Both the position numbers and the translations under genes were made by a program. Positions 9,976-27,755 of a stretch of DNA of 64,000 bases are shown here, piece after piece (positions within the stretch are counted from its first letter, which is position 1; every line of letters begins with the position of its first letter). A model generated the notes under the pieces. The model worked only from the letters and a program-made list of their open reading frames with translations. It was not told the DNA's origin and did not search any database. The stretch covers positions 252,481 to 316,480 of the forward strand of contig OY282383.1 in NCBI GenBank assembly GCA_958295855.1, read 5' to 3'. Source of the stretch: an uncultured Poribacteria bacterium (GTDB taxonomy: Bacteria; Poribacteria; WGA-4E; WGA-3G).

Positions 9976-10040
9976 GTAGTAGGCATGCTCCGCGTGCCGT
10001 ACACAGTTTAAAGTAGTAGGCATGCTCCGCGTGCCGTACA
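9976..10040. repeat. two tandem family C repeats
   Basis: aaagtagtaggcatgctccgcgtgccgtacacag appears twice. Confidence 0.85.
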
Positions 10041-12072: not shown

Positions 12073-12101
12073 GACAAATTCTGCCATTCAATGTATACTT
12101 A
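12073..12101 (+). promoter_or_regulatory. sigma70-like promoter (ttgaca-17-tatact)
   Basis: ttgaca at 12073-12078 and tatact at 12096-12101, upstream of the 12148 CDS. Confidence 0.4.
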
Positions 12102-12147
12102 TAGAAAGTACAAATGGCTAACACGCATCCAATTAATAGGAATCAAA

Positions 12148-13374
12148 ATGCAACATTTCACAGATGCAGCGTTGCTACAAATTATTGAAGACGACGAATC
12201 TGATCGCGTTGAGTTCAAGGAGTCTTTGTCTGGCAGTGCTCCGAAAGAAATCAGAGAAGCCATCTGTGCTTTTGCCAACGATTTGCCTCGCTACGAAAAA
12301 CCGGGATTCGTTTTCGTCGGAGTGAGGAAAGACAAAACTATTGTAGGGCTACCGGTTACAGATGAATTGCTCCGACAGTTGGCGGATATGAAAACTGATG
12401 GTAATATTGTGCCCCCGCCATCCCTGACAGTAGAAAAGCGTGTGCTGAAAGGCAAAGAAGTTGCTGTAGTTAAGGTGGAACCAACTGACTCACCGCCAGT
12501 TCGCTTCAAGGGCATTATCCGTATCCGTATCGGGCCTCGCCGAGGCATTGCTACCGCGCAGGATGAAAGGATTCTCAATGAAAAGCGTCGGCACAAAGAT
12601 GCCCCTTTCGACATTCAACCGGTTCTCGCGTCAGACCTATCCGATCTCAACCTAAGCCAATTTGAACACGAATATCTGGTGCAAGCCTTTGACCCTGACA
12701 TATTAGAAGCCAATGAACGCACGCTTGAAGAACGCCTAGCGGTAACGAAAATGATTGCCGCAACTGATGAGCCATTCGTGACTGTGATGGGAATCCTCGT
12801 ACTGGGCAAAAACCCACAAGATTTTCTTCCAGGGGCTTACGTGCAATTTCTCAGAATTGATAATATTCAATTAACAGACGATAGGGATATTCGTGATAGC
12901 GAGGCCATCAGGGGAGCAATCCCTGATATCCTCCGTCGTCTGGACGATAAACTGATAGCACACAATCGCACAGAGGTTGATTTCACGACTAGCCCTGTCG
13001 AACAAAGTACAGCACTTTATCCTATCCCGGCGTTGCAACAAATCATCCGGAATGCTGTTATGCACAGAACTTATGAAGCAACTCATGCACCGGTTCGCGT
13101 GTCATGGTTCAACGACCGCGTTGAAGTTTTAAGCCCCGGCGGTGCTTTTGGCGCAATAACGGTTGAAAATTTCGGGCAGCCCGATTTAACTGATTATCGC
13201 AACCCAAATCTGGCAGAAGCGATGAGAATCCTCGGTTATGTGCAAAAGTTTGGCATAGGAATACAGATAACTAGAAGTCTCCTGAAAAAAGCAGGCCATC
13301 CTGAACCAGAATTTGCAATCCTTGATAATTACGTGCGGGCAACCATAAAACTAGCACGCAAGCAAGAAATTTAA
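12148..13374 (+). CDS. AlbA_2 (Schlafen-like) DNA-binding domain protein with C-terminal HATPase-like domain (often misannotated RecG-like)
   Basis: MQHFTDAALLQIIEDDESDRVEFKESL...AICAFANDL...VFVGV is the typical AlbA_2 N-terminus. The C-terminal half resembles the ATPase-like domain that accompanies it. Confidence 0.6.
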   Translation: MQHFTDAALLQIIEDDESDRVEFKESLSGSAPKEIREAICAFANDLPRYEKPGFVFVGVRKDKTIVGLPVTDELLRQLADMKTDGNIVPPPSLTVEKRVLKGKEVAVVKVEPTDSPPVRFKGIIRIRIGPRRGIATAQDERILNEKRRHKDAPFDIQPVLASDLSDLNLSQFEHEYLVQAFDPDILEANERTLEERLAVTKMIAATDEPFVTVMGILVLGKNPQDFLPGAYVQFLRIDNIQLTDDRDIRDSEAIRGAIPDILRRLDDKLIAHNRTEVDFTTSPVEQSTALYPIPALQQIIRNAVMHRTYEATHAPVRVSWFNDRVEVLSPGGAFGAITVENFGQPDLTDYRNPNLAEAMRILGYVQKFGIGIQITRSLLKKAGHPEPEFAILDNYVRATIKLARKQEI

Positions 13375-13415
13375 GGGTATTTTACCCCTGCTTTGTAGGG
13401 GAAACCGATACCACC

Positions 13416-14438
13416 ATGACAATGCCTATTCCAGTTTTAACTTTCTTCAACAATAAAAGCGGAGTTGGTAAGACATCCCTCGTTTATCATCTCGCGTGGA
13501 TGTTATCCGACATCGGCTATCGAGTACTTGCCTGCGACCTCGACCCACAGGCAAACCTCACTAGTATGTTTATCAATGAGGAACGCCTAGAAGTACTGTG
13601 GCCTGACAGCGGCGCGCGAAAAACTATCTATAATGCCCTCCAACCGCTTTTGGACGGAACGGGAGACATTGAGCCACCTCACTTGGAGAATATAACACAC
13701 GAACGGCTAACGCAAGAATTAAGCCTCATCGTCGGCGACCTCATGCTATCTTCAACCGAAGATGAACTTTCGAGCCAATGGCCGGAGTGTTTGGACCGGC
13801 GTCCCCGTGCCTTCCGCGTCATCTCGGCACTATGGCGAATTTTGCAAAGGGCGGCGAGCGACCGGCAATCCAATATTGTCTTGGTAGATGTGGGGCCCAA
13901 CCTAGGGGCCTTGAATAGGGCGGTGCTAGTCGCTACTGATTACGTTATCGTTCCACTTGGAGCCGACCTATTTTCACTCCAAGGGCTGCGGAATCTCGGC
14001 CCGACGCTACAAGAGTGGCGAAAGGGGTGGCAAGAGAGACGTAGCCGCAACCCTATCCCTGATTTACAGATGCCCAATGGATTGATTCAACCGATTGGCT
14101 ATGTGGTGCAGCAACACGGGATTCGTCTGGAACGTCCAATTAAGGCTTACGACAAGTGGGTTAACCGGATGCCGGCAGAATACGCCCGAAACCTGCTAGG
14201 CAATAACAAGGGCCCTTACGCCAAAACACCGGCAGAAGATAAAGAAAATGCCCTCGCTACTGCCAAGCATTATCGCAGCATCGTCCCGATGGGACAGGAA
14301 GCGCGCAAACCGATTTTCCACCTCACCACGGCCGATGGAGCTATCGGCAGCCACGCTGCTGCTGCCCGCACCGCGTACAAGGATTTCAGGATTTTGTCAG
14401 AAAAGATAATCGACAGAATAGGAATTAGGAAGGCGTAA
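13416..14438 (+). CDS. ParA/MinD-family ATPase with C-terminal extension
   Basis: Deviant Walker A FFNNKSGVGKTS, then ACDLDPQANLT, then the ...VDVGPNLGALN...ATDYVIVPLGADLFSLQGL pattern. Confidence 0.7.
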   Translation: MTMPIPVLTFFNNKSGVGKTSLVYHLAWMLSDIGYRVLACDLDPQANLTSMFINEERLEVLWPDSGARKTIYNALQPLLDGTGDIEPPHLENITHERLTQELSLIVGDLMLSSTEDELSSQWPECLDRRPRAFRVISALWRILQRAASDRQSNIVLVDVGPNLGALNRAVLVATDYVIVPLGADLFSLQGLRNLGPTLQEWRKGWQERRSRNPIPDLQMPNGLIQPIGYVVQQHGIRLERPIKAYDKWVNRMPAEYARNLLGNNKGPYAKTPAEDKENALATAKHYRSIVPMGQEARKPIFHLTTADGAIGSHAAAARTAYKDFRILSEKIIDRIGIRKA

Positions 14439-16316: not shown

Positions 16317-17933
16317 TCACTCACCGAAGATGTCATCATGTAACTCCTCATAGACTGCCATACCAGGTTGAATGAGTGGGGCGAGAATATCTCTCATGAA
16401 ACTGTCTATGTTGTTTCCCATTCGTGATGGCTTGAAAGCCTCTCGCGCAGCGTGGTGGAGGTCTTGAACAATAGATTTCAGATCAGCGGCATCTTTGACA
16501 ACTTTACGCAATTCCTCAATCTTATCGGGCTTGTTTTCCTTTTCACCTAACTTAGTCAGCACCTCATCATCTATCAGGTAACTTTCAATTGTTCGCCGTG
16601 ACAAAGTGCGGATGCCTTTTTGGGCATACCTCTCTTTTGCCGAATCGGTTGCATAATCCCCGTCTCGGAGCCTGACGATTTTCGCCCTTTTCGCAATTGC
16701 CGTTATAACAGGAATCAGATTTGTGTCAGCGTTTTCTACATCTTTTCTGCCCCCGATGGAAACAAAAAGTGTTTCAGGGTGATGCTTCTCAAAAATCTGA
16801 TTATAGCACGCGGCATCAAAGCCTTCGGAAGCATCTTCGATTTTGCCTTCACAGAGAACAATCTGCTCGGGTACCACTAATTCGGAGAGGTCATCAAGGG
16901 TGACTTCATAGATGCGCGCCCAGAGATTTGAATCCGGCGGAGTGGGTATAAGCGTTACAGGTTCGTCGAAGTCGTGCCTATCAAAATTAAGGAAAACGAC
17001 AGATTTCGGACACTTTCGCCAGAGATCTTGCGCCTTGCGCACCATGCCAATGGAATGGGTCGCAATCCAAAGTTGGGACTTGTCAGGAATAAGGTTGTAA
17101 AGTTCCTCAAGGAGTTGTCCCTGAAGTTTCGTGTGCATGTGGGATTCAGGTTCGTCAATGCAAATGATGGTTTCGTCGTATTCAGCCTTTGTGACTATGA
17201 CATCCAGGAGCAGATCTAGTGCCGCCTTTTCCCCGCTGGCGAGATTCTGATATGAAAACCTCTCGCTTGTCCCTTTGTCAAATTGGAAGAATCCTCCGTC
17301 TGCCGGATGTCCCAAGTTCTTTAAAACCAATTTTGGGTCGTTGAATAGTCTACATATTGCGCCGCGGAGTTCGCCAAGAATCTCGTCTTGAAGCTCGGTT
17401 AAACTTTTCCCGTGTTGTCCGATTTCCGAACTACGCTCTAGCCATCGAGATGCTAACCTCCAATAATTTGATACAACAGCCTCATCATTTTCTATCAGGC
17501 TGACAAGCCGACGTTCCTTTAGTGGATTGTCCCTGTTGATGGTATGCGAATGAGTCATCGTATAGTTTCTGTAGGCGGAACGCGCGCTCACGCATTTGTC
17601 CCATTCATAGTCCGAGTACGGGTCTCCTCCGTGGAATTCTACATTTACGCAATCCGATATAAAACCACCTAAGAATCCAAGAAGGCTTTCTGATGGATAA
17701 TCACTAGATTTGACATAGTACTCCAAGATTTGGTAATAGTCATCCGATGTTTTAGTTTCATCTGTTGGAATGGGTGATAAATAGGTATAGAACTTCAGAC
17801 CCTCAAACACCGAGGACTTTCCGCATCCGTTGGGACCTATCATGACCACGAGCTTCGCCGTTTCAGGTAAGCCTTCAATAGTTAGGTCTGTGAAACGTTT
17901 GAAATTTTTCAGTTTAATCGATTTTATCTTCAT
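16317..17933 (-). CDS. OLD-family ATP-dependent endonuclease-like protein (ABC-type ATPase + C-terminal TOPRIM-like domain)
   Basis: Start at MKIKSIKLKNFKRFTDL. Walker A GPNGCGKSS, Walker B ICIDEPESHMH, then WIATHS. C-terminal VLCEGKIED...IGGRKD...RLRDGDY resembles the TOPRIM E / DxD motifs. The ORF's upstream 76 codons are repeat-derived. Confidence 0.7.
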   Translation of the reverse strand: MKIKSIKLKNFKRFTDLTIEGLPETAKLVVMIGPNGCGKSSVFEGLKFYTYLSPIPTDETKTSDDYYQILEYYVKSSDYPSESLLGFLGGFISDCVNVEFHGGDPYSDYEWDKCVSARSAYRNYTMTHSHTINRDNPLKERRLVSLIENDEAVVSNYWRLASRWLERSSEIGQHGKSLTELQDEILGELRGAICRLFNDPKLVLKNLGHPADGGFFQFDKGTSERFSYQNLASGEKAALDLLLDVIVTKAEYDETIICIDEPESHMHTKLQGQLLEELYNLIPDKSQLWIATHSIGMVRKAQDLWRKCPKSVVFLNFDRHDFDEPVTLIPTPPDSNLWARIYEVTLDDLSELVVPEQIVLCEGKIEDASEGFDAACYNQIFEKHHPETLFVSIGGRKDVENADTNLIPVITAIAKRAKIVRLRDGDYATDSAKERYAQKGIRTLSRRTIESYLIDDEVLTKLGEKENKPDKIEELRKVVKDAADLKSIVQDLHHAAREAFKPSRMGNNIDSFMRDILAPLIQPGMAVYEELHDDIFGE

Positions 17934-18162
17934 ATAATACACTCCTAAACGTTGAATTGGTATGATTGCGGAGGCAACCCCTGTCCAGTCACATACTGCG
18001 CCGCTGGAGCGGAAGAGGGGAGCCTCGGTGCGATGCTCCTCTTTAGCCCTATAAGGGCGACATGTGTATAGTACCGCGGGCCCACCCTCCCCCTTAGCAC
18101 CAGCGGGGGCGACATGTGTCGAATGAAAACCAAAAATTAATGGGAGGATGGAGGTGTTCATT

Positions 18163-18270
18163 GTCTGAATCGCGGATTACGCAGATTACGCGGATTAACG
18201 CGGAGAAGAGCAGAACCCCTCTTAAAATCCGCGTTTATCCGTGTTATCCGTGATAATCCGCGATTCAGAC
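18163..18270. repeat. 108-bp palindromic element with GCGGATTA-type iterons
   Basis: gtctgaatcgcggattacgcagattacgcggattaacgcggag...ctcttaaaatccgcgtttatccgtgttatccgtgataatccgcgattcagac. The 17-bp terminal inverted repeats enclose 3-4 tandem 9-bp units on each arm. Confidence 0.5.
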
Positions 18271-18323
18271 AAAAAAATAATCCGCGCTCGCAACTCAGAA
18301 ATAAGGAAAACGCGCGACTCCCA

Positions 18324-18354
18324 CACACCTACATCCCTGCATCCCGATACGTCC
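18324..18354. repeat. 31-bp direct repeat copy 1 (cacacctacatccctgcatcccgatacgtc)
   Basis: Second copy at 24334-24364 with 1 mismatch. The two copies flank the MTase + Panacea-2 + HD segment. Confidence 0.7.
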
Positions 18355-18360
18355 ACTTAA

Positions 18361-21300
18361 TTATCCCACAGTGTTTTTCTCTCCTTCCACGCCCATCACT
18401 TTTTCCACAATAGCAACTTCATCATCAGTTAATCCATAAAGCGCGTAAATCAACGCATCAATTTGCCGCTCATCCGCGGCGCTCTCTGCCTTCGGGTTTT
18501 CCCATTTCGCTGACAGAAGCTGTTCCACAAGTTCAATAATCGGTTGTTGCTGCTCAGGTGACACAAGCGGAATAGGTATTTTGCCAACATAGTAGTTATC
18601 AAAGTGCATCGTCATGAGTGCAGAGCAAAAGATAAACCGGTGGGCATACCAATTCACTAGCGTGGAGTTGAATAGGGCAGCAATAAAATTCAGGCTAAAA
18701 TTTGGATTCGTGAGAAACGTATTTTCGACAGTGTCAACTCCTAATATATCACCGGTTTTGTCAACGGTAGCCTTTATTTTTTTGTGCGTCACGATATTCT
18801 GAGAGAGGATTTTCGGCTGAAGTAGCGATTGAATTTTCTTATCGGCAGAATCAAGAGTGTCGCGGTTAGCAAACCCTCTCACACCATCAATTCCGTAGCG
18901 GCTTATATTTCTTCCACCAATCACTTTAATTGCACCAGTAGCGTTCAGGAATTTCTGTACCGACAAACCTCGTACACTCTGGGAAATTTCGCTTAGGTGC
19001 GTCCCGATACGATTTAGCTTTAAACCTAACTGAATTTCATCGCTGGACACATCGCATATCCATGCCTCAAACGTTTTCGGATAGTCTTTGGAAATCTGAG
19101 TCGTTTGGGTAAACGTATCATTGACAAACTTCCGAGCTGTATAGAAATCATTTTTAGACTGGGAACTGTAGACGAAAACAACCTGTTCCAATAAGACATT
19201 CTCAAAAGCCCGTTCAACATCAACGAGAACAATGGCTTTTTCTGACAAAGTGAAAGCTAAGCTCTGCCAAGTTTTAGAATACAATAAGGATTTGGGAACT
19301 ATAAATGCGAGGTTACCATCAGGTTTCATCAAATGATTTTTGGCATAATCAATAAACAGGGCGGCACTGTTTGAATTTCGGGTATCTTGAAGGTTGGCTT
19401 TAATCTGCGCTAGTTCAGCTTTCGGAATTTTAGCACCATAAGGGGGATTGCCGATGGCAATGTCAAACCCATCTTTCACACCGAACATCCACTCCGTGTC
19501 AAAGAAATCGGCGACAGCGTTCTGGTCATACGCATCCCAGGTGGCAATTTTCTGGGCCTCTCCAACACTCGCTTTTAACCTTTTCTCACGAACCGTGTAC
19601 GCCTTCTGAAGTTTTTCACGTAATTGATTGCGCGTCCGTTCTGTCTGCAGCTGAGCAACCTGTTCCGCTATCTTGTTTTGCTCACTCCCCACCCAGTGCA
19701 CATGCTGGGCTATCAATGCCTGCTTCAATTGTTCCCGAACGCCTGCCTCTTGGCGGATGTACCGGAGTTTTCGTTGCCGGGTGTTCGCGTTGAAATACCT
19801 CTGGCGGATAGCACCAATTTCAGCGCGTATCTGCCGAATGTTGTCGGTTTCAAGCAACAGCTGCTGGGCGTCTGTATTTAGCCCAATGAGGGTATTGGCA
19901 GCAACGAACTTCACTTCCAGATTGGGCAGCGGCCGAATGCCGTAGTTTGCCGCGCGGTTCTCGTTCGGCACCTGCTCAATGATGAGCGAGATGAAAAAGC
20001 GGAGTTTGGCAATCGTGACAGCGATGGGTTGAATGTCCACGCCATAAATGCCGTTTTGGATAAGGTAGAGCTTGCGTCCGTAGTCGTTGTAGCGGTTCGC
20101 TTCGGAGAACACCTGCTCGATACCCGCAAGTGCAGCTTCGCGGCTTTGCAGGTCAGGAATTGTTTCTGCCTGCTCGAGTTGTCGCTGTTTCCAGCGTTCA
20201 TTCTGCGGATCCAGTTTTTGGAGAATCAGCACCAGTTTATTGAGAATGCCCATCGGGAAAGCACCAGAACCGACTGCCGGATCGATGATTTTGAGTTCGT
20301 CTATCGCTTGAATCATTGACATGATTTCATCTTCATAGATGAGGTGTTTATTGGGATTATCTTCCGTACCTTGCCGGTCATAGGCAAGGAGATCTTCGCG
20401 GAGCCTGCCCTCCAAGCCCTCCCCGTGGCCGTCGGAGGGTTCAACCTTCTGAAGGAAATAGGCGATGAGCGCCTCGTCTACCATGTAATCAACTATCTGC
20501 CGTGGGGTATAGTAGGAGCCGGTGGCTTTGCGCGCGGTGGACTGTGTTTCCGGATTAGACGCGCCGAGCAGATTCTCAAACACCTGCCCGAGCAGTTCCG
20601 GGTCGAGGGCGACTTCTTGCTCAATGGGCGTGTTTTCCTCTACCGTGAACTTATAGCGGGAAAAGAGCGGAAAGATGCCGTTTTCTTCGTCAAAGAAGAG
20701 TTTTGTCGGGACGTGTAGTTTCCGCCTGTCGTTTGGATTGTCAGTGAAACAATCAACGCGCGCCCCACCATCACCGGGCGCCTCAAACGTATCCAGGCAG
20801 TCGAACAACCCGCCGTTAACAAACGGCACCTGCTTGAGGTACTCCAGAAATGCGTCTGCATCTTGGAGGAGATCCGCGTAGCGATATTTGCTCGCATCTC
20901 GATGATCTGGGTTATTGCGCCTACTAAAGACGCGTTCACTTATCGGCGTATTGAGGGTGGCAAAAAAGAGGTTTTGGAGGACAGCCTGGTAGTAATCGGA
21001 ACGCTCTTCGGTAGACGCGAGCTGCGCTCGCCACTTGTATGTTACCCCGCTTTGCGGGGAAGCATACCTGTCCCCGGTAGAACTGGCATGGGGCTCGCTA
21101 TCTCTCAGAAACGCTTGCGCGCCTTCTCTCTCAAAAAGTGCCGGAGGCACCAACCCCTTTTCCTTCAGAAACCAGATAAAGAGGAGCCGTGTTATCAGCC
21201 GGATGCCCTGCATCGCATTCGCTGCATCCGGAAATCTACAGGCCGCCTTTGCCCAATCATACCATTTCTCAAGGTCTCGGTAAAAACGGCGGTTGAGTGC

Positions 21301-21972
21301 CTCCGTATTGAGAATGCCCTCCCACACCTTATGGAGCGTATCAAAGTTATGAACGCCTTCGGTTTCAATCAGTCTATTGAGGTGGAGTTCGGCGAGGATG
21401 TCTAGATGCGCGCGGTGCGGGGAATTCAAGTTTATGTCTTTGATGAGCGTGACTTTCTCCAGCACCCGCTTTTCAGGCTCGCGTTTGTGCCTTCGCCGGT
21501 TGATAATCGCGAGGGTCAGAAAAGCACTAGACCGGAATATCACCATGATGGGCTGCGGGAGCTGTCTATTGATAAAGCGGGTAATGTCGGAGAGTTGTGT
21601 ACGTGTATAACTCCCCTCGGCAAGTTGCACGGCAACGAACATGTAGGAACGCATCAGTGTGTCGTCTATGTCCGTGCTCTCAAAGAGTGATTTCTGCTGA
21701 GTTATCTGCGCGTTAATCTCAGTATCCGTCACTTGCAAGACTAAGTAAAATGCCTGCCAGTCGTTAATGCGGAGTTTGTGAGAGGGGTTGGCGGTTTCTG
21801 CGGCAGCGGCCTTGAGGCGTTGGTACCTGTCGCTATCTATACCGTCGTTTCCGACCCTCCTGCTGTGGTAGCCGAGGGTGTTGAGGAACGCGGTGGCGGC
21901 TTCCCTGAGGGGTTGTTCATCGAAGTGCCGGAGGTTCGCCTCAATGTTATGTTTGATGGTGTCTGAATTCAT
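18361..21972 (-). CDS. large N6-adenine DNA methyltransferase, PglX/type IIG-like (NPPY motif)
   Basis: Motif I IIDPAVGSGAF and motif IV FDIAIGNPPYG, 1203 aa. ATG chosen at MNSDTIKHN (21972); the longer ORF would need a TTG at 22008. No recognisable nuclease motifs were seen by eye. Confidence 0.75.
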   Translation of the reverse strand: MNSDTIKHNIEANLRHFDEQPLREAATAFLNTLGYHSRRVGNDGIDSDRYQRLKAAAAETANPSHKLRINDWQAFYLVLQVTDTEINAQITQQKSLFESTDIDDTLMRSYMFVAVQLAEGSYTRTQLSDITRFINRQLPQPIMVIFRSSAFLTLAIINRRRHKREPEKRVLEKVTLIKDINLNSPHRAHLDILAELHLNRLIETEGVHNFDTLHKVWEGILNTEALNRRFYRDLEKWYDWAKAACRFPDAANAMQGIRLITRLLFIWFLKEKGLVPPALFEREGAQAFLRDSEPHASSTGDRYASPQSGVTYKWRAQLASTEERSDYYQAVLQNLFFATLNTPISERVFSRRNNPDHRDASKYRYADLLQDADAFLEYLKQVPFVNGGLFDCLDTFEAPGDGGARVDCFTDNPNDRRKLHVPTKLFFDEENGIFPLFSRYKFTVEENTPIEQEVALDPELLGQVFENLLGASNPETQSTARKATGSYYTPRQIVDYMVDEALIAYFLQKVEPSDGHGEGLEGRLREDLLAYDRQGTEDNPNKHLIYEDEIMSMIQAIDELKIIDPAVGSGAFPMGILNKLVLILQKLDPQNERWKQRQLEQAETIPDLQSREAALAGIEQVFSEANRYNDYGRKLYLIQNGIYGVDIQPIAVTIAKLRFFISLIIEQVPNENRAANYGIRPLPNLEVKFVAANTLIGLNTDAQQLLLETDNIRQIRAEIGAIRQRYFNANTRQRKLRYIRQEAGVREQLKQALIAQHVHWVGSEQNKIAEQVAQLQTERTRNQLREKLQKAYTVREKRLKASVGEAQKIATWDAYDQNAVADFFDTEWMFGVKDGFDIAIGNPPYGAKIPKAELAQIKANLQDTRNSNSAALFIDYAKNHLMKPDGNLAFIVPKSLLYSKTWQSLAFTLSEKAIVLVDVERAFENVLLEQVVFVYSSQSKNDFYTARKFVNDTFTQTTQISKDYPKTFEAWICDVSSDEIQLGLKLNRIGTHLSEISQSVRGLSVQKFLNATGAIKVIGGRNISRYGIDGVRGFANRDTLDSADKKIQSLLQPKILSQNIVTHKKIKATVDKTGDILGVDTVENTFLTNPNFSLNFIAALFNSTLVNWYAHRFIFCSALMTMHFDNYYVGKIPIPLVSPEQQQPIIELVEQLLSAKWENPKAESAADERQIDALIYALYGLTDDEVAIVEKVMGVEGEKNTVG

Positions 21973-22003
21973 GTCAGGCCTGCTTTTTCCACTAAAACGG
22001 AAA

Positions 22004-22118
22004 GGCAACTCCCCTACGATGAGCGTGCCATCAGGGCGGATGGCACGCTCATCGCCATCGTTGAGAGGCCGATTGTAATGTCAGATGAGACGGTGCGTGG
22101 GAAAAATCGGGTGCATGT
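22004..22118. repeat. 115-bp duplicate of the 3' end of the 10106-11821 gene (copy of 11698-11812)
   Basis: ggcaactcccctacgat...ggatggcacgctcatcgccatcgttgagaggccgattgtaatg.cagatgagacggtgcgtgggaaaaatcgggtgcatgt is ~94% identical between the two positions. Confidence 0.75.
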
Positions 22119-22203
22119 TTAGTAACCTGACAAATTTAGTTGTTTTAGGACAGGCAGGTTCGCTAAAAATGACTCTTCCGACAACTTTGGAGCGGCCAAA
22201 TCG

Positions 22204-22785
22204 CTAAGATTCATCAGTTGTTACAAGCTTTAGTTTGGTTAGAAAGGAGAGGACGCTTTCGATATCCTCTGGGCTCACGTCCCAACCATACTCTTCGGCA
22301 ACCTGTCGCACCTCTCCTATTGTACTTTTCCCTCTCCAATTGACAATGTAGTGGACTTTTGCCGCGATGGAAAGCTTGTTAAAATCGTTAGAGATAGGCT
22401 GGGCGTTAATCAACTCTAGTGCTGCTTTCCATTTTGGAAAATCCGGTTCTTCTTCGAGGTCACTCCATACCTCGCGGCCCCCCTCGGCCAGGGAGTAGGT
22501 GTGCCGGCGAATTTCGCCGAAAACATTTTGATCTTTTGAAGCTGTCGCGAAGGATTCTATCTTTTCATTAAGGAATCCATGGGCAACTAAACTATCTAGG
22601 TGCCCCGCAACCACGCTACTGTAAGGACCGTAGCGATGCGCGGTGAAGTCAAAATTAACTTCCATCAGCACAGATAGAAAGTAGACTTTTTTTTGGAGGA
22701 GCGTTCTCCCTCGTAGTTCGCCCCTGTCTTCGCTATTCACAACGAGTAGAAGAATGTCTATGGTGTACATTTCATTACCTTTCAA
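22204..22785 (-). CDS. Panacea-domain (DUF4065/GepA-like) protein, copy 2
   Basis: LLQKKVYFLSVLM...HRYGPYSSVVAGHLD. Its start overlaps the stop of the upstream HD gene (ATGA). Paralog of 15399-15980. Confidence 0.55.
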   Translation of the reverse strand: MKGNEMYTIDILLLVVNSEDRGELRGRTLLQKKVYFLSVLMEVNFDFTAHRYGPYSSVVAGHLDSLVAHGFLNEKIESFATASKDQNVFGEIRRHTYSLAEGGREVWSDLEEEPDFPKWKAALELINAQPISNDFNKLSIAAKVHYIVNWRGKSTIGEVRQVAEEYGWDVSPEDIESVLSFLTKLKLVTTDES

Positions 22786-24179
22786 GCAGAGCGTAAAATG
22801 TTTTGAATTTCCGGTTCAAGTGCCGAGCGCCTCTGTTTGCCCGATAGATTATTCCCATCTGGTGATACGTAAACTTGCACCGTTTCTAGAGAAGCTTCGT
22901 TGTCGGTGGCGGGTCTCGCGAAAAACAGTTCACTTGCATAATCGCTCATAGCCCTTGGTTCCGACTGATTCTCGTCAAAAATCGTAATCGCTTCCGCATC
23001 CAGGATGTAACTCCGGCTCCCGTAGTTTGGATTACGCATCTGAAGAGGCCTAATAATTACATAATCGGTATCACTACGGAGATGTGCTGCAATCTTTCGC
23101 TCCAATTCCTGTTTCAGAAGGGAATCATCTTTCATTGCAAGCAGCCTGCGTCTCACCTTGCTATTTGTTTCGTCTTTAAGCCGAAGTTCTGCAACCATTT
23201 TGAAGAGGTTTCGGTTGTAGAGCCTGTTGAAAATTTCACGTGCTTTCTCTTGGGGACAAGCTTTCAAAATATCAATCAGTTTCTCATCATGGTAGGTGAG
23301 ATAGTTTTGAATGAAGCTTTCAGGGTTTTCTTCACTGTATTGATAAAGTTTGGCCATTTGTGTATTGCCGCGCTCTATTGCAAGGGTAATCCCGCGGATA
23401 ATCATCTCATTGGAAATGAGGCTGACCCGGTGCCAATATACCTGCTGTGTCATGTGATATCGCGCAAGCAGGAGTTGTTCAAGGGCATAAATGCCTTTAC
23501 TGCTAACTGCTAGAGAGGTTTCTGTTTTGTCAACCTCAATAAGGCATGATTCAATCAGTTTTTCCAGATCGTATATCCCATATTTAACACCGGCGAAATA
23601 GGAATCGCGTAAGAGGTAGTCCATTTTATCCGCGTCTAATTCGCTAGAGACAATGTCACGCTGCCAGTCTTGTGTATCTTGCCCTTGAATCATGTCAGCT
23701 ACGAAATCCCGTTCATCCTTGTTCAGAATGCCGCGGATGGCCGAGTCAGTCTGAATAATATCTACAGTAATTTTCTCGTGTATCTTTTCGCGCGTAGATC
23801 CCATATCGGTTCGATCCGGCGCGTGCTCATCCAACAAGTACTCCGAAACGTGACTAAATGGCCCGTGCCCAACATCATGAAGTAACGCCGCAAGTCTAAC
23901 CCGCTCTACGTCTTCATTGCATATTCTCGTTGGATGCAATTCTTGGAGCTTTGTGCAAATTCGGCCCGCGATGTGCATCACACCAATTGAATGATCGAAG
24001 CGCGTATGTAACGCCCCCGGATACACCAAAAACGTCATCCCCAACTGCCGAATTCGACGGAGCCGCTGAAACACCGGGGTGTTAATCAGTTTCATTTCCT
24101 TTTCAGAAACTTTGATAAACCCGTGAATCGGGTCGCGCATTTCATGGGAACGTTCTATCATATTAAAATTATACCACAA
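22782..24179 (-). CDS. HD-domain dNTP triphosphohydrolase-like protein (dGTPase/SAMHD1 family)
   Basis: RFDHSIGVMHIAG, LLHDVGHGPFSH and ELDADKMDYLLRDSYFAGV match the H..HD..D and DxDRxDYLxRD signatures of dNTPases. Confidence 0.7.
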   Translation of the reverse strand: MWYNFNMIERSHEMRDPIHGFIKVSEKEMKLINTPVFQRLRRIRQLGMTFLVYPGALHTRFDHSIGVMHIAGRICTKLQELHPTRICNEDVERVRLAALLHDVGHGPFSHVSEYLLDEHAPDRTDMGSTREKIHEKITVDIIQTDSAIRGILNKDERDFVADMIQGQDTQDWQRDIVSSELDADKMDYLLRDSYFAGVKYGIYDLEKLIESCLIEVDKTETSLAVSSKGIYALEQLLLARYHMTQQVYWHRVSLISNEMIIRGITLAIERGNTQMAKLYQYSEENPESFIQNYLTYHDEKLIDILKACPQEKAREIFNRLYNRNLFKMVAELRLKDETNSKVRRRLLAMKDDSLLKQELERKIAAHLRSDTDYVIIRPLQMRNPNYGSRSYILDAEAITIFDENQSEPRAMSDYASELFFARPATDNEASLETVQVYVSPDGNNLSGKQRRSALEPEIQNILRSA

Positions 24180-24333
24180 TATGTTAAGTAATGCAAATTA
24201 AAAATTGAGTAAACTTATGATGATTTTTCACCCTTCACACTGATATTCCCACATTCTAACCTGCCATCTCCACATAAAAGTCTTGCATAATGTCTGAAAT
24301 CAATCAAGGAAAAGCAAATCTTTGATCTGCCCT

Positions 24334-24364
24334 CACACCTACATCCCTGCATCCCGATCCGTCT
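24334..24364. repeat. 31-bp direct repeat copy 2
   Basis: cacacctacatccctgcatcccgatccgtc; see 18324-18354. Confidence 0.7.
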
Positions 24365-24452
24365 GCGCTATCAACGCAATCTCTTCCTCCGACACCGGTG
24401 TGCCGGAGACATCGCCCCACGCCGCGCAAAGTGACACCGAACCCACGTTTTA

Positions 24453-27400
24453 TTAAGATTCGGCAGCGTTATTAAACCCGCGGCTGATAACCAGCCATGT
24501 AATCAGTTCAAATTGAGTCTCTTCCGTGATTTGGTTTTCGGCAATCGGGAGCAGGAAATCCGCACTTGCCTCCAGCTGATCGTTGACTTTCCGATTGTAC
24601 GCTTGGCGAATTGAATCCATCGCGGCATCAATTAGCCTCTCATAAAGCCTCATATCGCTGCCGTTGGCAGTCTCCTCGTTAAACCAGTGACACAGGTTTT
24701 GATTGGGAGTAGTTTTCCCGACACAGAGCGCGCTGAATCGTTCTAAAATCTGTTTCGGATTGGTGAAACCGAGAGAGACTGCACCTTTATCGCTGATATG
24801 GACGAGGTAGTAGGGATAAATCGGATTGAGCTTCTCTCCATCTTCATTCTCCTTCGCCTCGCCGGTTTGTCTTAGACAGAAGATAACGCCCGGTTCAATA
24901 TTTACGGGGGCACCGTCGTGCTTCTGAGGCGCGGTAACAGCGTATAAGCCGAGGGGTGCGTTTCGGAGTTCCACCTCGTTGCTGCGGAGATAGTTAAGGA
25001 GTTGTACGCGGAAATCGCCAAGCGTGAATTGGTTGAGATTCAATTGTGCTTCAATATCTTCAAACTCAAGGATTTCGCTCTGCATGCGGCGCAGCTGCGC
25101 GTCCCGGTGCGTCCAAACCTGCTCCATGCTCTTTTTCTCTTTCAATGAAAGCAGAGCGTCATCACCTGTAGCAGTGAGATTGACGAGTGCCATTCGTGCC
25201 TCAACGCGAGGTTTGAGATTGATATACTCGTCGAGTTCAGGTGTGGGCCAGAAGTTGACAAGCTGGATGTTCTCGTTACGGCTCCCAATCCGGTCAATTC
25301 GTCCGAAACGTTGGATAATGCGGACAGGGTTCCAGTGGATATCGTAATTGACGAGATAACCGCAATCCTGCAGGTTTTGTCCTTCGGAGATACAATCGGT
25401 GGCGATGAGGAGATCGATTTCGGGGGTGGCATGTTTCCCCTGCTTTGTAGGGGTATCAAGATGGGTTCTATCCTTGGAGATTGGGGAGAAATTGGTGAGA
25501 ATCTCGTTGAAATCATTTCTTCCAAGCGTGGTGCTGTTGGCACTGCCTGTGACGACAGCACAGTGAATGTTAAGCGTCTCGGTTGCCCACGCGTGCAAAT
25601 TATCGTAGAGATAATTGGCAGTATCCGCAAAAGCGGTAAAAACGAGAATTTTGCGATTCTCTTTTCCGCATCGGTTTGTTGTGGGGTGCTGCACCTTGGC
25701 AGCGATGAGCCGTTTGAGTTCCTCCAATTTTGCATCCCGGTCGGGTGTCATGTTTTTCGCGATGCTGTAAATTTTCTCCAATTGCACCTTGTCGTCTCGG
25801 AGGTCGGCTAACCAAGCGTCCAGATCGAGGTGTTTATACTGATACACCTCATCTTTCCCTGCTTGTATACCGGTCTGGAGTTCGTCGTCTTCTCCATATT
25901 CTTCGGTTGCCTCGGCAAACGCATCGAAACCACTTTCATGAACCGTTCCCGCGTGTGCGTTCACAAAGTCGCCAATTTCAGACTCACGCGCTTTAATATT
26001 TTCAATAGTGCGTTCCAGCGTCGTTGCAAAGGAGTAGACGCTACTTTCAAGCCGTTTGAGGAAGTTCACCTTCATCATACCGATGAGATTGAACTCGCGC
26101 TGTTGGAGGAGTCTACCGCCATAATGGTGTTGGCACGCTTGTCGGATATATTTTGACGGATTAAAAAGTGAGAGTTTATAGCCATCAATTTGATTGCTGA
26201 TCGCTTGGTAGGTGGGGAATTGCCCTTGCCTGTCAATTTCTGGAAAGATAGACTTTGGAGTCTCATGCTCTGGAAACCCACCGATCTGTTCCATAGAATC
26301 GCTATAGAAGTTCTGAATATGTGTACGGGAACGGGCAATAGTGAGCCGGTCCAAGAGCGAAAAGAAGTCCGCACTGAGGCTTTCCGAAAGATTTTCTTGC
26401 CTTCTTGATTTATCGGGGAGCGGCTCAGTTTCTGTTGTCCATGTCTCAAAATTGCTTTGGGCAGTCTTAAGCGTTGCTCTGATGCTTGGGATACCGGTCC
26501 CTTTAAAGGCATCGTCTTTGTCTTCGGTGATTAAAGAGATTTGGTTCTCCAGATCGGTGAGTCGATTGTTGACTGGGGTGGCAGAGAGCATAAGCACTTG
26601 GGTTTTGCATCCACTCTGGATAATGTCTTCCATTAATTTATTATAACGAGCACCGCGGTTTCGGAAGTTGTGGGATTCATCAATGACGACAAGATCGTAC
26701 CCGTCCCATTCATGATGTGCAAGGTCAATGCCGTTGGATTCACCGCTGTCCCGGCTCAAATCCGTGTGTGCCAGCACAGCATAACGGAACTGATCGGCTT
26801 TCAGTGGATTATTTTTATTGCGAGATTGTGTATGATAAAGCGTCCAGTTTCTTTCCAACTTCTTAGGACACAGCACTAAGACGCGGTAATTTCGCAACTC
26901 AAAGTATTTGATAATAGCGAGTGCCTCGTAGGTTTTGCCTAACCCAACGCTATCAGCGATGATACAACCTTTGTATGCCTTCAGTTTCTGGATACACGCC
27001 TGAACACCGTGTTTTTGAAAGGCGTAGAGTTTCTGCCAGATTTCAGTTTCCTGAAACCGGGGATTTGCTTCGACAAAGGGTGTGTCGTTTGCGTCTGTCA
27101 AGAAATTTTCAAAAAGGTGGTAGAGGGTTTTGTAGTAGATGAATTCGGGGGCTTTGTCTTGATAGGCATTTTCGAGGGTTCGCAGCACCTGTCGTTTTAC
27201 ATCTTCAACCTCGTCGGATTCCCAAAGGTTATCAAACCACGTTTTCAGGTCAGCGCAGTCGCTTTTGCTGTCGACTTCAAGGTTGAGTTCAATATTGCTC
27301 GCCTTTTCGCTTAACCCCAAGCCGCGTACGGTAAAGTTAGCACTCCCGATGAGCGCATCCTCACCGCCGGCCTTCTCAATATAATACATCTTTCCGTGCA

Positions 27401-27755
27401 GGAAATTAGAACGGCGCACCGAGCGGAGCTCCACTTTCTCTTCAATCCAGGCGGCACATGCCTTGGCGAGCTCGCTTTGGGGGAGGTAGTTCTCAAGGCT
27501 TAATCCCGCTTCAGTCAACGCAAACGCCTTGCCCTCCGTTTTTTGCGGGTCCATTCCGCCGATGAAACTCGGTTCACCGAACAGAAAACGGAGGTTATCA
27601 ATGCCAGTCAGCGACTCTTTGAGGGCGTTAAAGGCGTAAATGGTGAAATAGGCGGAGACGATGGAGAGGGAAGCACCCTCTTGGATTTTCTCTCGCAGAA
27701 AATCGGCGACGGTGCCGTACATGCTGTTATCTCGGATGCGGGAGTGTTGGGACAT
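24453..27755 (-). CDS. PLD-family nuclease / SNF2-family helicase fusion protein
   Basis: N-terminal HKD-like motif FLHGKMYYIEKAGGEDALIGSANFTVRG. SNF2 motifs CIIADSVGLGKT (I), VIDESHNFRN (II) and HWNPVRIIQRFGRIDRIGS (VI). A family B hairpin encodes LDTPTKQGKH in frame (25425-25454). Confidence 0.8.
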   Translation of the reverse strand: MSQHSRIRDNSMYGTVADFLREKIQEGASLSIVSAYFTIYAFNALKESLTGIDNLRFLFGEPSFIGGMDPQKTEGKAFALTEAGLSLENYLPQSELAKACAAWIEEKVELRSVRRSNFLHGKMYYIEKAGGEDALIGSANFTVRGLGLSEKASNIELNLEVDSKSDCADLKTWFDNLWESDEVEDVKRQVLRTLENAYQDKAPEFIYYKTLYHLFENFLTDANDTPFVEANPRFQETEIWQKLYAFQKHGVQACIQKLKAYKGCIIADSVGLGKTYEALAIIKYFELRNYRVLVLCPKKLERNWTLYHTQSRNKNNPLKADQFRYAVLAHTDLSRDSGESNGIDLAHHEWDGYDLVVIDESHNFRNRGARYNKLMEDIIQSGCKTQVLMLSATPVNNRLTDLENQISLITEDKDDAFKGTGIPSIRATLKTAQSNFETWTTETEPLPDKSRRQENLSESLSADFFSLLDRLTIARSRTHIQNFYSDSMEQIGGFPEHETPKSIFPEIDRQGQFPTYQAISNQIDGYKLSLFNPSKYIRQACQHHYGGRLLQQREFNLIGMMKVNFLKRLESSVYSFATTLERTIENIKARESEIGDFVNAHAGTVHESGFDAFAEATEEYGEDDELQTGIQAGKDEVYQYKHLDLDAWLADLRDDKVQLEKIYSIAKNMTPDRDAKLEELKRLIAAKVQHPTTNRCGKENRKILVFTAFADTANYLYDNLHAWATETLNIHCAVVTGSANSTTLGRNDFNEILTNFSPISKDRTHLDTPTKQGKHATPEIDLLIATDCISEGQNLQDCGYLVNYDIHWNPVRIIQRFGRIDRIGSRNENIQLVNFWPTPELDEYINLKPRVEARMALVNLTATGDDALLSLKEKKSMEQVWTHRDAQLRRMQSEILEFEDIEAQLNLNQFTLGDFRVQLLNYLRSNEVELRNAPLGLYAVTAPQKHDGAPVNIEPGVIFCLRQTGEAKENEDGEKLNPIYPYYLVHISDKGAVSLGFTNPKQILERFSALCVGKTTPNQNLCHWFNEETANGSDMRLYERLIDAAMDSIRQAYNRKVNDQLEASADFLLPIAENQITEETQFELITWLVISRGFNNAAES

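Follow-up and report, generated by a model that had tools for sequence, protein, structure and literature searches.

Positions 22,204 to 24,179 of the 64,000-nucleotide stretch of Poribacteria DNA that we analyzed (hereafter the window) hold two co-directional open reading frames, both on the minus strand and both genuine genes. The first encodes an HD-domain protein related to SAMHD1 and EF1143, and the second encodes a small winged-helix protein of the YwgA family. From sequence comparisons, we conclude that the two genes are a widespread two-gene module whose function is a prediction. Our favored reading, held tentatively and rated slightly below an even chance, is that the pair is a toxin-antitoxin-like module in which a dNTPase is restrained by its partner. 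The coupling of an antitoxin-like partner to a dNTPase-like HD enzyme agrees with all of the computed results and is partly supported by them. The features of the region are listed in Table 1.

Table 1. The gene pair, its junction and its neighbors in the window.
Feature	Coordinates	Strand	Length	Description and basis
HD gene	22782..24161	(-)	459 aa from ATG (MIERSH...)	SAMHD1/EF1143-class predicted dNTP triphosphohydrolase
Small partner gene	22204..22770	(-)	188 aa from ATG (MYTID...)	YwgA-family, tandem winged-helix, DarG C-terminal-like; distant Panacea relative
Spacer AAGGTAATGAA	22771..22781	(-)	11 nt	HD stop (TGA 22784-22782) to partner ATG (22770); read from the sequence
Promoter-like site TTTGCA-18-(TG)TATAAT	24168..24197	(-)		Consensus scan, 10/12 matches, extended -10
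PLD(HKD)-SNF2 helicase, upstream neighbor	24453..27755	(-)	1100 aa	Pfam PLDc_2, SNF2-rel_dom, Helicase_C; PADLOC C3a139 'HKD+Snf2' 1e-124
Eco57I-type N6-adenine methyltransferase, downstream neighbor	18361..22008	(-)	1215 aa	Pfam Eco57I 2.6e-20, TaqI_C, N6_Mtase; PADLOC REase_MTase_IIG 2e-55
AAA_15/AAA_21 ATPase, OLD/AriA-like	16317..17933	(-)		Pfam AAA_15, AAA_21; PADLOC AriAB 2e-28

An earlier note on this DNA had the HD stop codon overlapping the partner start as ATGA. That overlap is absent. Instead, the genes are separated by a spacer with an AAGG Shine-Dalgarno-like element inside it, and the sole start codon that overlaps the HD stop is a TTG at 22785 (TTGA). All 21 of 21 aligned homologs of the partner begin at the MYTID/MHIID methionine, which is the ATG that we assigned. 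The HD reading frame can be extended to a TTG at 24179, and tblastn alignments of its homologs begin at the ATG, residue 1. The same spacing recurs in most Poribacteria loci (for example, an HD match ending at 9986 and a partner starting at 10001), and genuine overlaps of 4 to 11 nt between the two genes occur in the distant homologous loci L045, L046 and L051. The promoter-like site ends 6 nt before the HD ATG. Five such sites were found in the region against 3.2 expected, a count that is not above chance. The site is weak evidence that the pair is perhaps transcribed from a promoter of its own, in which case the transcript might be leaderless.

The HD protein matches Pfam HD (PF01966; 6e-14, 52.7 bits, cutoff 22) and HD_assoc_2 (PF19276; 7e-20, 71.8 bits, cutoff 23.1). 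In a phmmer search of the PDB, it matched the Aquifex structure 2hek (4e-46), EF1143 (2o6i, 9e-42) and SAMHD1 (about 1e-33), and its predicted place in a dNTPase-like HD family is thereby upheld by domain models and solved structures alike. The metal-binding residues H57, H95-D96 and D181 and the catalytic dyad H128-E129 are present, and the catalytic and metal residues align to 2hek and 9mr6. Residues H52/H57, H95-D96, H104, H128-E129 and D176/D178/K179/D181/R185/D186 are invariant in 23 paired orthologs. We conclude that the protein is, as judged by its sequence, a SAMHD1/EF1143-class (COG1078/YdhJ) enzyme with all catalytic residues intact. Two motifs had been ascribed to it: H..HD is indeed there, whereas the second, given as DxDRxDYLxRD, reads DxDKxDYLxRD (D-A-D-K-M-D-Y-L-L-R-D, which includes D181), with lysine in place of arginine. 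We also asked whether the gene could be the housekeeping dgt. The protein scored 30.3 bits against a cutoff of 152.35 for the NCBIfam Dgt-type dGTPase model TIGR01353 and 27.8 bits against a cutoff of 400 for the antiphage_dGTPase model NF041026, with matches confined to about 90 N-terminal residues. These scores place it outside the Dgt family and rule out the dgt reading. Among PADLOC models it matches the dGTPase model only, and there only over residues 24-114.

The partner had been called a Panacea (DUF4065) protein, and the comparisons point to a superfamily-level resemblance rather than to Pfam membership. No match to SocA_Panacea/DUF4065 (PF13274) was found even at E<=10, which excludes the partner as a bona fide Panacea member; 3 of 150 diverse relatives match PF13274 weakly (best 1.9e-4), and among the homologs listed (120 in each search) there was none with a precomputed Pfam domain. 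The resemblance runs through the C-terminal domain of DarG (DarG-CTD). At the sequence level the support is weak: the partner matches the PADLOC DarG model at 2.6e-7, aligned to positions 180-322 of 329 only, and NCBIfam antitoxin_DarG at 1.9e-4 (20.8 bits; cutoff 250), and its family profile matches 7yk3_B, the DarG-CTD, at 1.4e-4. In structural comparison, 167 of 188 residues match the DarG-CTD across both winged-helix units, the sole full-length structural match. Neither the N-terminal ADP-ribosyl glycohydrolase macrodomain of DarG nor any nucleotidyltransferase match was found in the 188-aa partner. The fold match itself is strong, and the further connection to DUF4065 rests on the published statement that DUF4065 proteins are homologous to the DarG domain (PMC13621843) together with the three weak Pfam matches. 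Several relatives are named 'uncharacterized protein YwgA' by JGI, and the family has at least 980 clusters at 50% identity and no Pfam model. We conclude that the partner is a YwgA/DarG-CTD-like relative and not a Pfam Panacea member.

The winged-helix fold raises the possibility that the partner is only a PadR/MarR-like transcriptional autoregulator, with no direct inhibition, and that the HD protein acts alone as single-gene anti-phage dGTPases do. The structural matches that follow the DarG-CTD are of the PadR, MarR and RTP winged-helix types, family members match Pfam RTP, PadR, HTH_45 and TrmB weakly, and the promoter-like site described above immediately precedes the HD gene. The generic winged-helix structural matches, however, have much lower Z and extend over no more than about 80-95 residues, whereas the full-length match is specific to the DarG-CTD, a protein-binding inhibitor, and in-frame HD-YwgA fusions (see below) are easier to reconcile with a protein partner than with a repressor. 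We regard a purely transcriptional role as improbable. The two roles are mutually compatible, because many type II antitoxins both repress and inhibit.

In 35 of 42 genome loci, both genes are intact and the HD gene directly adjoins the partner. The two are likewise adjacent in 6 of 7 look-ups in metagenomes and on 5 of the 7 viral contigs, and the order is HD first and partner second. This adjacency is beyond chance. The paired loci come from about nine phyla (Poribacteria, Gammaproteobacteria, Terriglobia, Limisphaerales, Dehalococcoidia, Stahlbacteria, Acidobacteriaceae, Smithella and Bathyarchaeia). The co-occurrence that the earlier note had proposed to look for is seen here with a YwgA-family protein as the partner instead of a Pfam DUF4065 member. 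With its 11-nt spacer here and overlaps of -4 to -11 nt elsewhere, the pair has the tightly spaced, conserved bicistronic arrangement by which type II toxin-antitoxin systems are recognized. It is present on predicted viral contigs; a tblastn search with the partner found no match in phages and, among plasmids, one weak match to a Haloarcula plasmid with no HD gene nearby.

Loci in which the pair has decayed are asymmetric. The HD gene is deleted or truncated beside an intact partner in five loci (L001, L004, L012, L021 and L027), and the reverse was seen once, in L041, where an apparently intact HD gene stands beside a partner cut to 63 aa. L041 argues against the HD protein being obligately lethal without its partner. 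Lone partner genes occur in L043 and L044, and an IS element lies between the two genes in L050. A partner 'frameshift' in L030 falls in an A-run and is probably an assembly error. The two proteins are joined in frame in P0365 (635 aa) and possibly a second time in L036. We set L036 aside as firm evidence, since a 96%-identical unfused sequence, P0360, differs from it by a frameshift and the fusion may be an assembly error. In a mixed alignment centered on P0365, a natural fusion, MAFFT aligned the YwgA 'YGPYS' motif onto an HD 'HGPFS' motif.

The window pair sits in a restriction-like defense island of a sponge-symbiont genome, and the GC content of the island is lower than that of its flanks. 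Besides its TaqI_C specificity domain, the methyltransferase shows a weak match to DUF4391 at its N terminus. The true start of the ATPase is probably M77 of the reading frame 16317..18161, as its tblastn alignments with orthologs start at residues 70-77. Helicase orthologs, 65-77% identical, adjoin the pair in many Poribacteria loci. A gammaproteobacterial sponge MAG (L008) carries the entire island at 65-77% amino-acid identity, and the island appears to have moved between phyla. Other defense contexts include a type I restriction-modification system (L045), ParE/PIN toxin-antitoxin genes adjoining the pair (L049), and the order SNF2-HD-YwgA-...-DUF1156 (L046).

Such a setting could mean that the pair belongs to the flanking PLD-SNF2/methylase/ATPase system as an integral accessory, coupling restriction to nucleotide depletion and not autonomous. 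In about 24 loci of the Poribacteria type, an ortholog of the helicase, of the methylase or of both is found within 10 kb of the pair. In the window and in L003, the pair is lodged between helicase and methylase, and the order in L046 also favors this reading. The position of the pair relative to the system varies, however: in most loci it follows the ATPase. Moreover, the pair occurs without this system in L015, L016, L018, L023, L024, L028, L033-L040, L048 and L051. We consider an integral accessory role very unlikely.

Outside Poribacteria, the pair lies mostly among housekeeping genes. At 18 loci without the helicase/methylase system, the 115 neighboring reading frames are mostly metabolic or housekeeping and few match defense models; in L050 and L051, the pair lies between glnS and trpC/smpB. 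These neighbors favor a reading in which the HD protein is a housekeeping enzyme that sanitizes or balances dNTP pools, YwgA is an allosteric or localizing subunit, the pair corresponds to B. subtilis ywfO-ywgA, and the position in a defense island is incidental. JGI names relatives of the two proteins 'HD superfamily phosphohydrolase' and 'YwgA', and ywfO and ywgA are presumably consecutive names in the positional scheme of B. subtilis. In addition, the Firmicute relatives have the look of core genes: ywfO is among the genes co-evolving with polC (PMC3814617), and a YwfO-like gene was kept in the minimal JCVI-Syn3.0 genome (PMC4993169). Against a housekeeping role stand the patchy and variable location of the pair within one phylum, the repeated pseudogenization or deletion of the HD gene and the IS element between the genes in L050, the apparent transfer of the whole island between phyla, the presence of the pair on predicted viral contigs, and the fact that the closest structural relative of the partner is an antitoxin domain. 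Taken together, we consider a housekeeping function unlikely, while giving it real weight.

Under the toxin-antitoxin-like reading that we prefer, the observed features of the pair (its family membership, intact active site, tight conserved linkage, partner fold and local island context) lead us to infer dNTPase activity, physical binding, inhibition, a trigger and an anti-phage role as follows. When free, the HD protein would hydrolyze dNTPs and stall the replication of both phage and host DNA. The YwgA-family partner, probably made from the same transcript, would bind the enzyme and hold it off until a trigger removed or titrated the partner; candidate triggers are infection, loss of a labile partner, or a phage nucleic-acid or replication protein. 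The DarG-CTD mimics ssDNA on DarT, and the allosteric sites of SAMHD1 accept oligonucleotides. By analogy, the partner may occupy a nucleic-acid or allosteric site of the HD enzyme. In the window, where it is lodged inside the PLD-SNF2/methyltransferase/ATPase system, the module would probably be an added layer of defense.

In favor of this toxin-antitoxin-like reading, we counted the intact catalytic residues, the cross-phylum linkage, the toxin-first gene order, the match to the DarG domain, the local defense island, and the precedents of Clover and of the HD(YdhJ)+Panacea pairs predicted by Kurata et al. (both described below), along with two indirect hints, namely the asymmetric decay (five HD losses against one partner loss) and the one or two fusions. 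Counted against it were L041, the lone partners, the mostly housekeeping neighbors at 18 loci, the core-like Firmicute relatives, and the fold that the partner shares with PadR/MarR-type DNA-binding regulators. Further, a protein inhibitor is not required, because SAMHD1-family enzymes are normally self-regulated by nucleotides. A C-terminal tail, ...DESDDIPF, is found in one third of close partner relatives and resembles the tip of bacterial SSB. It enters into a speculative idea to which we assign little probability, that YwgA proteins are decoy sensors that mimic nucleic acid or an SSB tail and clamp the SAMHD1-like dNTPase shut; phage replication or ssDNA-binding proteins would pull them off, with the tail as bait in the relatives that carry it, and so bring on nucleotide depletion. 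SAMHD1-class enzymes would then be controlled by a protein inhibitor.

Understanding of how bacteria protect themselves from their own nucleotide-depleting immune enzymes is at an early stage; Clover, an example of such control, was worked out only in 2025. If YwgA is a direct protein inhibitor or sensor, the pair would represent a second, protein-based control logic for SAMHD1-class dNTPases, a large family that lacks annotation would gain a function, and the toxins known to be paired with the DarG-CTD/Panacea antitoxin fold would come to include a nucleotide hydrolase. The JGI names hint that B. subtilis ywfO-ywgA belongs here, and if that were confirmed, a model organism would be at hand for a quick test. 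Even if the pair proved to be a housekeeping enzyme with its regulatory subunit, this would be something new in the biology of the bacterial SAMHD1 relatives.

The pair can be compared with several known systems. B. subtilis ywfO-ywgA is a putative counterpart: JGI gives partner relatives the label 'YwgA', and from their names we take ywfO and ywgA to be neighboring genes; they differ in being chromosomal, core-like genes with no known role in defense. YwfO has been described as a related HD phosphohydrolase (PMC4993169), and we found essentially no functional literature on YwgA or YwfO. The earlier note did not recognize the pairing as described. Dataset S1 of Kurata et al. 2022 (PMC8832971) does hold seven predicted PanAT pairs, from thermophilic Clostridia, with the toxin cluster T34/pT33 ('HD domain-containing protein', CDD YdhJ); all are marked 'notest' and are absent from the main text, so that the pairing has been predicted and to that extent the claim stands in part. 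The NetFlax paper does not mention an HD toxin, and the 'embedded defense systems' preprint and its supplements have no HD, dNTPase or PF19276 entry. In the T34/pT33 pairs, as here, a YdhJ/COG1078-type HD gene lies directly upstream of a gene for a Panacea-type small protein, toxin then antitoxin. The gaps are -4, 0 or -17 nt there and 11 nt here, and their partners passed a DUF4065 search, whereas the window partner has no PF13274 match.

The pair shares with DarTG the toxin-then-antitoxin order of darT-darG, the two-winged-helix fold of the DarT-inhibiting DarG domain (PDB 7yk3) and a QK..YF....YGPYS motif common to the partner and that domain. It differs in having neither a macrodomain nor DarT, and its putative toxin is an HD nucleotide hydrolase, whereas DarT is a DNA ADP-ribosyltransferase. 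With SAMHD1, an antiviral nucleotide-depletion effector, and with EF1143 and Aquifex 2hek, the HD protein shares strong similarity and, as predicted here, the chemistry of HD-superfamily dNTP triphosphohydrolases. SAMHD1, EF1143 and the single-gene Dgt-family dGTPases have no dedicated partner gene; the window HD protein has one and lies outside the Dgt family. In Clover, the defense dNTPase CloA is restrained by the nucleotidyltransferase CloB (PMC12265719). Both systems consist of an HD dNTPase gene and a partner gene, with the HD motif and HE dyad conserved, and in the window pair both the dNTPase activity and the restraint are putative. The one PADLOC model that the window HD protein matches is dGTPase, with a match limited to the N-terminal 90 residues, and its partner is a small non-enzymatic winged-helix protein, in contrast to CloB, a Pol-beta-type nucleotidyltransferase that makes an inhibitory nucleotide.

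The stretch 22204-24179 holds two ORFs in the same direction on the minus strand, the HD gene and the gene for its small YwgA-family partner. ORF calling permitted TTG starts at 24179 for the HD gene and at 22785 for the small gene. Both were rejected: in tblastn, homolog matches to the HD protein start at the methionine of MIERSH, and the small protein's relatives, 21 in the alignment, all start at the methionine corresponding to ATG 22770. The homolog-supported ATG starts therefore leave an 11-nt gap between the genes, and the ATGA overlap of stop and start described in the earlier note is replaced by the spacer AAGGTAATGAA. Most related Poribacteria loci have the identical spacing, and in three more distant loci (L045, L046 and L051) the genes genuinely overlap, by 4 to 11 nt. 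From this recurrent short spacing and the distant overlaps, we conclude that tight operon-like coupling is a trait of the family. Just 6 nt separate the HD ATG from a promoter-like sequence with an extended -10, TTTGCA-18-TGnTATAAT. A transcript starting there would have little or no leader; the site is identified solely by its fit to the consensus, and sites of this kind are no more frequent in the region than expected by chance.

Features of the HD-YwgA pair and its surroundings, in window coordinates
Feature	Position	Strand	Length	Remark
HD protein ORF	22782-24161	-	459 aa	ATG 24161, stop TGA 22784-22782
Small protein (YwgA) ORF	22204-22770	-	188 aa	ATG 22770, stop at 22204
Promoter-like site	24168-24197			
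PLD(HKD)-SNF2 helicase	24453-27755			flanks pair
Eco57I-type adenine methylase	18361-22008			flanks pair; TaqI_C, weak N-terminal DUF4391 match
OLD/AriA-like ATPase	16317-17933			after methylase
Schlafen AlbA_2/HATPase_c_4 protein and ParA-like AAA_31 ATPase	12091-14438			low-GC edge of island

The HD protein matched the Pfam models HD and HD_assoc_2, both above threshold, and aligned over about 350 residues with solved SAMHD1-family structures: Aquifex 2hek (4e-46), 9mr6 (2e-42), E. faecalis EF1143 (2o6i, 9e-42), and human and mouse SAMHD1 (~1e-33). We rejected identification as a Dgt-type dGTPase (TIGR01353, 30 bits, cutoff 152) or as an 'antiphage_dGTPase' (28 bits, cutoff 400); Dgt-type models align with only the N-terminal ~90 residues. 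Across an alignment of 23 orthologs, every one with a small partner, the metal ligands H57, H95-D96 and D181 (in DADKMDYLLRD), the His-Glu dyad H128-E129 and other active-site residues were invariant. Because the HD motif and HE dyad are the elements required for dNTP hydrolysis in the Clover paper (PMC12265719), the HD protein is predicted to be an active dNTP triphosphohydrolase, with both activity and substrate range deduced from sequence.

For the small protein, a Pfam search gave zero matches, even at E<=10, and the homologs listed in two database searches (120 each) carry no precomputed Pfam domains; several have the JGI name 'uncharacterized protein YwgA'. An exhaustive profile search (E<=1e-3) returned 980 family clusters at 50% identity, nearly all of stand-alone proteins of ~180-195 aa. 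Sequence matches, weak but consistent, fall in the C-terminal half of DarG, an antitoxin (PADLOC DarG, 2.6e-7, model positions 180-322 of 329; NCBIfam antitoxin_DarG, 1.9e-4), and the family profile matched PDB 7yk3_B at 1.4e-4 via the common motif QK..YF....YGPYS. An AlphaFold2 model (pLDDT 87, pTM 0.86) predicts two winged-helix units connected by helices. Of the solved structures, a single one matched the model over its whole length, the C-terminal domain of DarG in complex with DarT (Foldseek E=1.8e-5, probability 1.0, TM 0.67). Homology of DUF4065 (Panacea) proteins to this domain is stated in a 2026 paper (PMC13621843), and 3 of 150 diverse family members gave weak matches to PF13274, the best at 1.9e-4. 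Given the DarG-domain likeness, this homology and the lack of a Pfam match, the 'Panacea' label of the earlier note probably holds at the superfamily level but failed at the family level.

Separately, about a third (40/120) of the small protein's close, poribacterial relatives end in ...DESDDIPF (e.g. P0006, P0011, P0030 and P0047; loci L002, L005, L007 and L009), as do only 2 of 150 representatives at 50% identity. This tail is closely similar to the C-terminal tip of bacterial SSB, where many proteins of replication and repair dock; the window protein ends ...TTDES, without it.

The pairing extends well beyond this locus. Scanning one genome per species for relatives of the small protein yielded 42 loci, most from Candidatus Poribacteria (sponge symbionts) and the remainder from Gammaproteobacteria, Terriglobia, Limisphaerales, Dehalococcoidia, Stahlbacteria, Acidobacteriaceae, Smithella and Bathyarchaeia. 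Both genes were intact and adjacent in 35 of the 42, and the pair was present in 6 of 7 metagenome look-ups (one, L050, with an IS element between the genes) and on 5 of 7 predicted viral contigs. Gene order is reversed, partner first, in the bathyarchaeial L040, and L042, located where a contig ends, gave a partial match. Decay was asymmetric: five genomes had lost HD by internal deletion or truncation with the partner intact (L001, L004, L012, L021 and L027), versus one, L041, with HD intact and the partner shortened to 63 aa. One natural in-frame HD-YwgA fusion (P0365, 635 aa) looks genuine; a second (L036:8533-10522) is set apart by a frameshift from P0360, an unfused protein of 96% identity, and could be an artefact of assembly. 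In one poribacterial genome (L003:8628-11177), HD is followed by two tandem small-gene paralogs, whose products share 73% and 63% identity with the window protein.

The window pair sits between the helicase and the methylase of a restriction-like system. This PLD-SNF2 helicase, Eco57I/TaqI_C methylase and OLD/AriA-like ATPase system is conserved in Poribacteria (window 16317-27755, loci L002-L026), and orthologs of its genes (45-77% identity) border the pair in ~24 Poribacteria-type loci. The genes there usually run helicase, methylase, (ATPase), HD, YwgA; the pair lies between helicase and methylase only in the window and in L003, with its paralog group. From this variable position we conclude that the pair behaves as a cassette moving relative to the system. 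That it should be an integral accessory of the flanking restriction-like system is very improbable. The ATPase ORF (16317-18161, 614 aa) has a 76-residue N-terminal extension matched by no ortholog; the real start is probably ATG 17933 (MKIKSIKLKNF...). The island (~12-28 kb of the window) has a GC of 0.44-0.49, below its flanks (0.51-0.60), and recurs at 65-77% amino-acid identity in a gammaproteobacterial sponge MAG (L008), which suggests horizontal transfer.

We consider a toxin-antitoxin-like module the most likely reading of the pair, at somewhat less than even odds. Under this reading, the free SAMHD1-class enzyme would deplete dNTPs, co-translated YwgA would bind it and keep it inactive, in the way that DarT is restrained by the homologous domain of DarG, and a trigger such as infection would release it. 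The DarG C-terminal domain is reported to inhibit DarT via ssDNA mimicry (Deep et al. 2023, cited in PMC13621843), and SAMHD1 allosteric sites can accept oligonucleotides (PMC7854603); by analogy, the partner may occupy a nucleic-acid or allosteric site of HD. A defence dNTPase held back by its partner gene has a recent precedent in Clover (PMC12265719). Against the toxin-antitoxin-like reading, HD is kept without its partner in L041, SAMHD1-type enzymes can be self-regulating, the fold of the partner is shared with DNA-binding repressors, Firmicute relatives resemble core genes and many lineages have housekeeping neighbourhoods. Three further settings of the pair are of a defence type: it adjoins type I R-M fragments in L045, has an SNF2 helicase on one side and a DUF1156 protein on the other in L046, and lies by ParE/PIN toxin-antitoxin genes in L049. 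At 18 loci lacking the helicase/methylase system, however, the 115 neighbouring ORFs were mostly metabolic or housekeeping with few defence matches, an argument against defence islands being the general setting of the pair; its neighbours in L050 and L051 are glnS on one side and trpC/smpB on the other. A housekeeping enzyme with a regulatory subunit is a less likely account. A purely transcriptional regulator is a distinctly unlikely role for the partner.

No functional description of the pair was found in the literature searched. Dataset S1 of Kurata et al. 2022 lists seven predicted PanAT pairs of toxin cluster T34/pT33, an 'HD domain-containing protein' with the CDD domain YdhJ, toxin first and antitoxin second with gaps of -4, 0 or -17 nt; all are marked 'notest' and go unmentioned in the main text (PMC8832971). 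The HD-Panacea pairing, which the earlier note did not recognise as described, has thus been catalogued computationally and never studied. Taken together, the observation behind that note is partly confirmed and its interpretation partly supported. The toxin-antitoxin-like function is putative, a role in defence does not extend to all lineages, and a published dataset already contains the pairing. The module is widespread, coherent and possibly testable in B. subtilis. It resembles Panacea/DarG-CTD-type antitoxin modules on the partner side and partner-regulated dNTPase systems on the HD side, and compared with the catalogued HD-Panacea pairs the window locus is divergent, its partner going undetected by the Pfam model.
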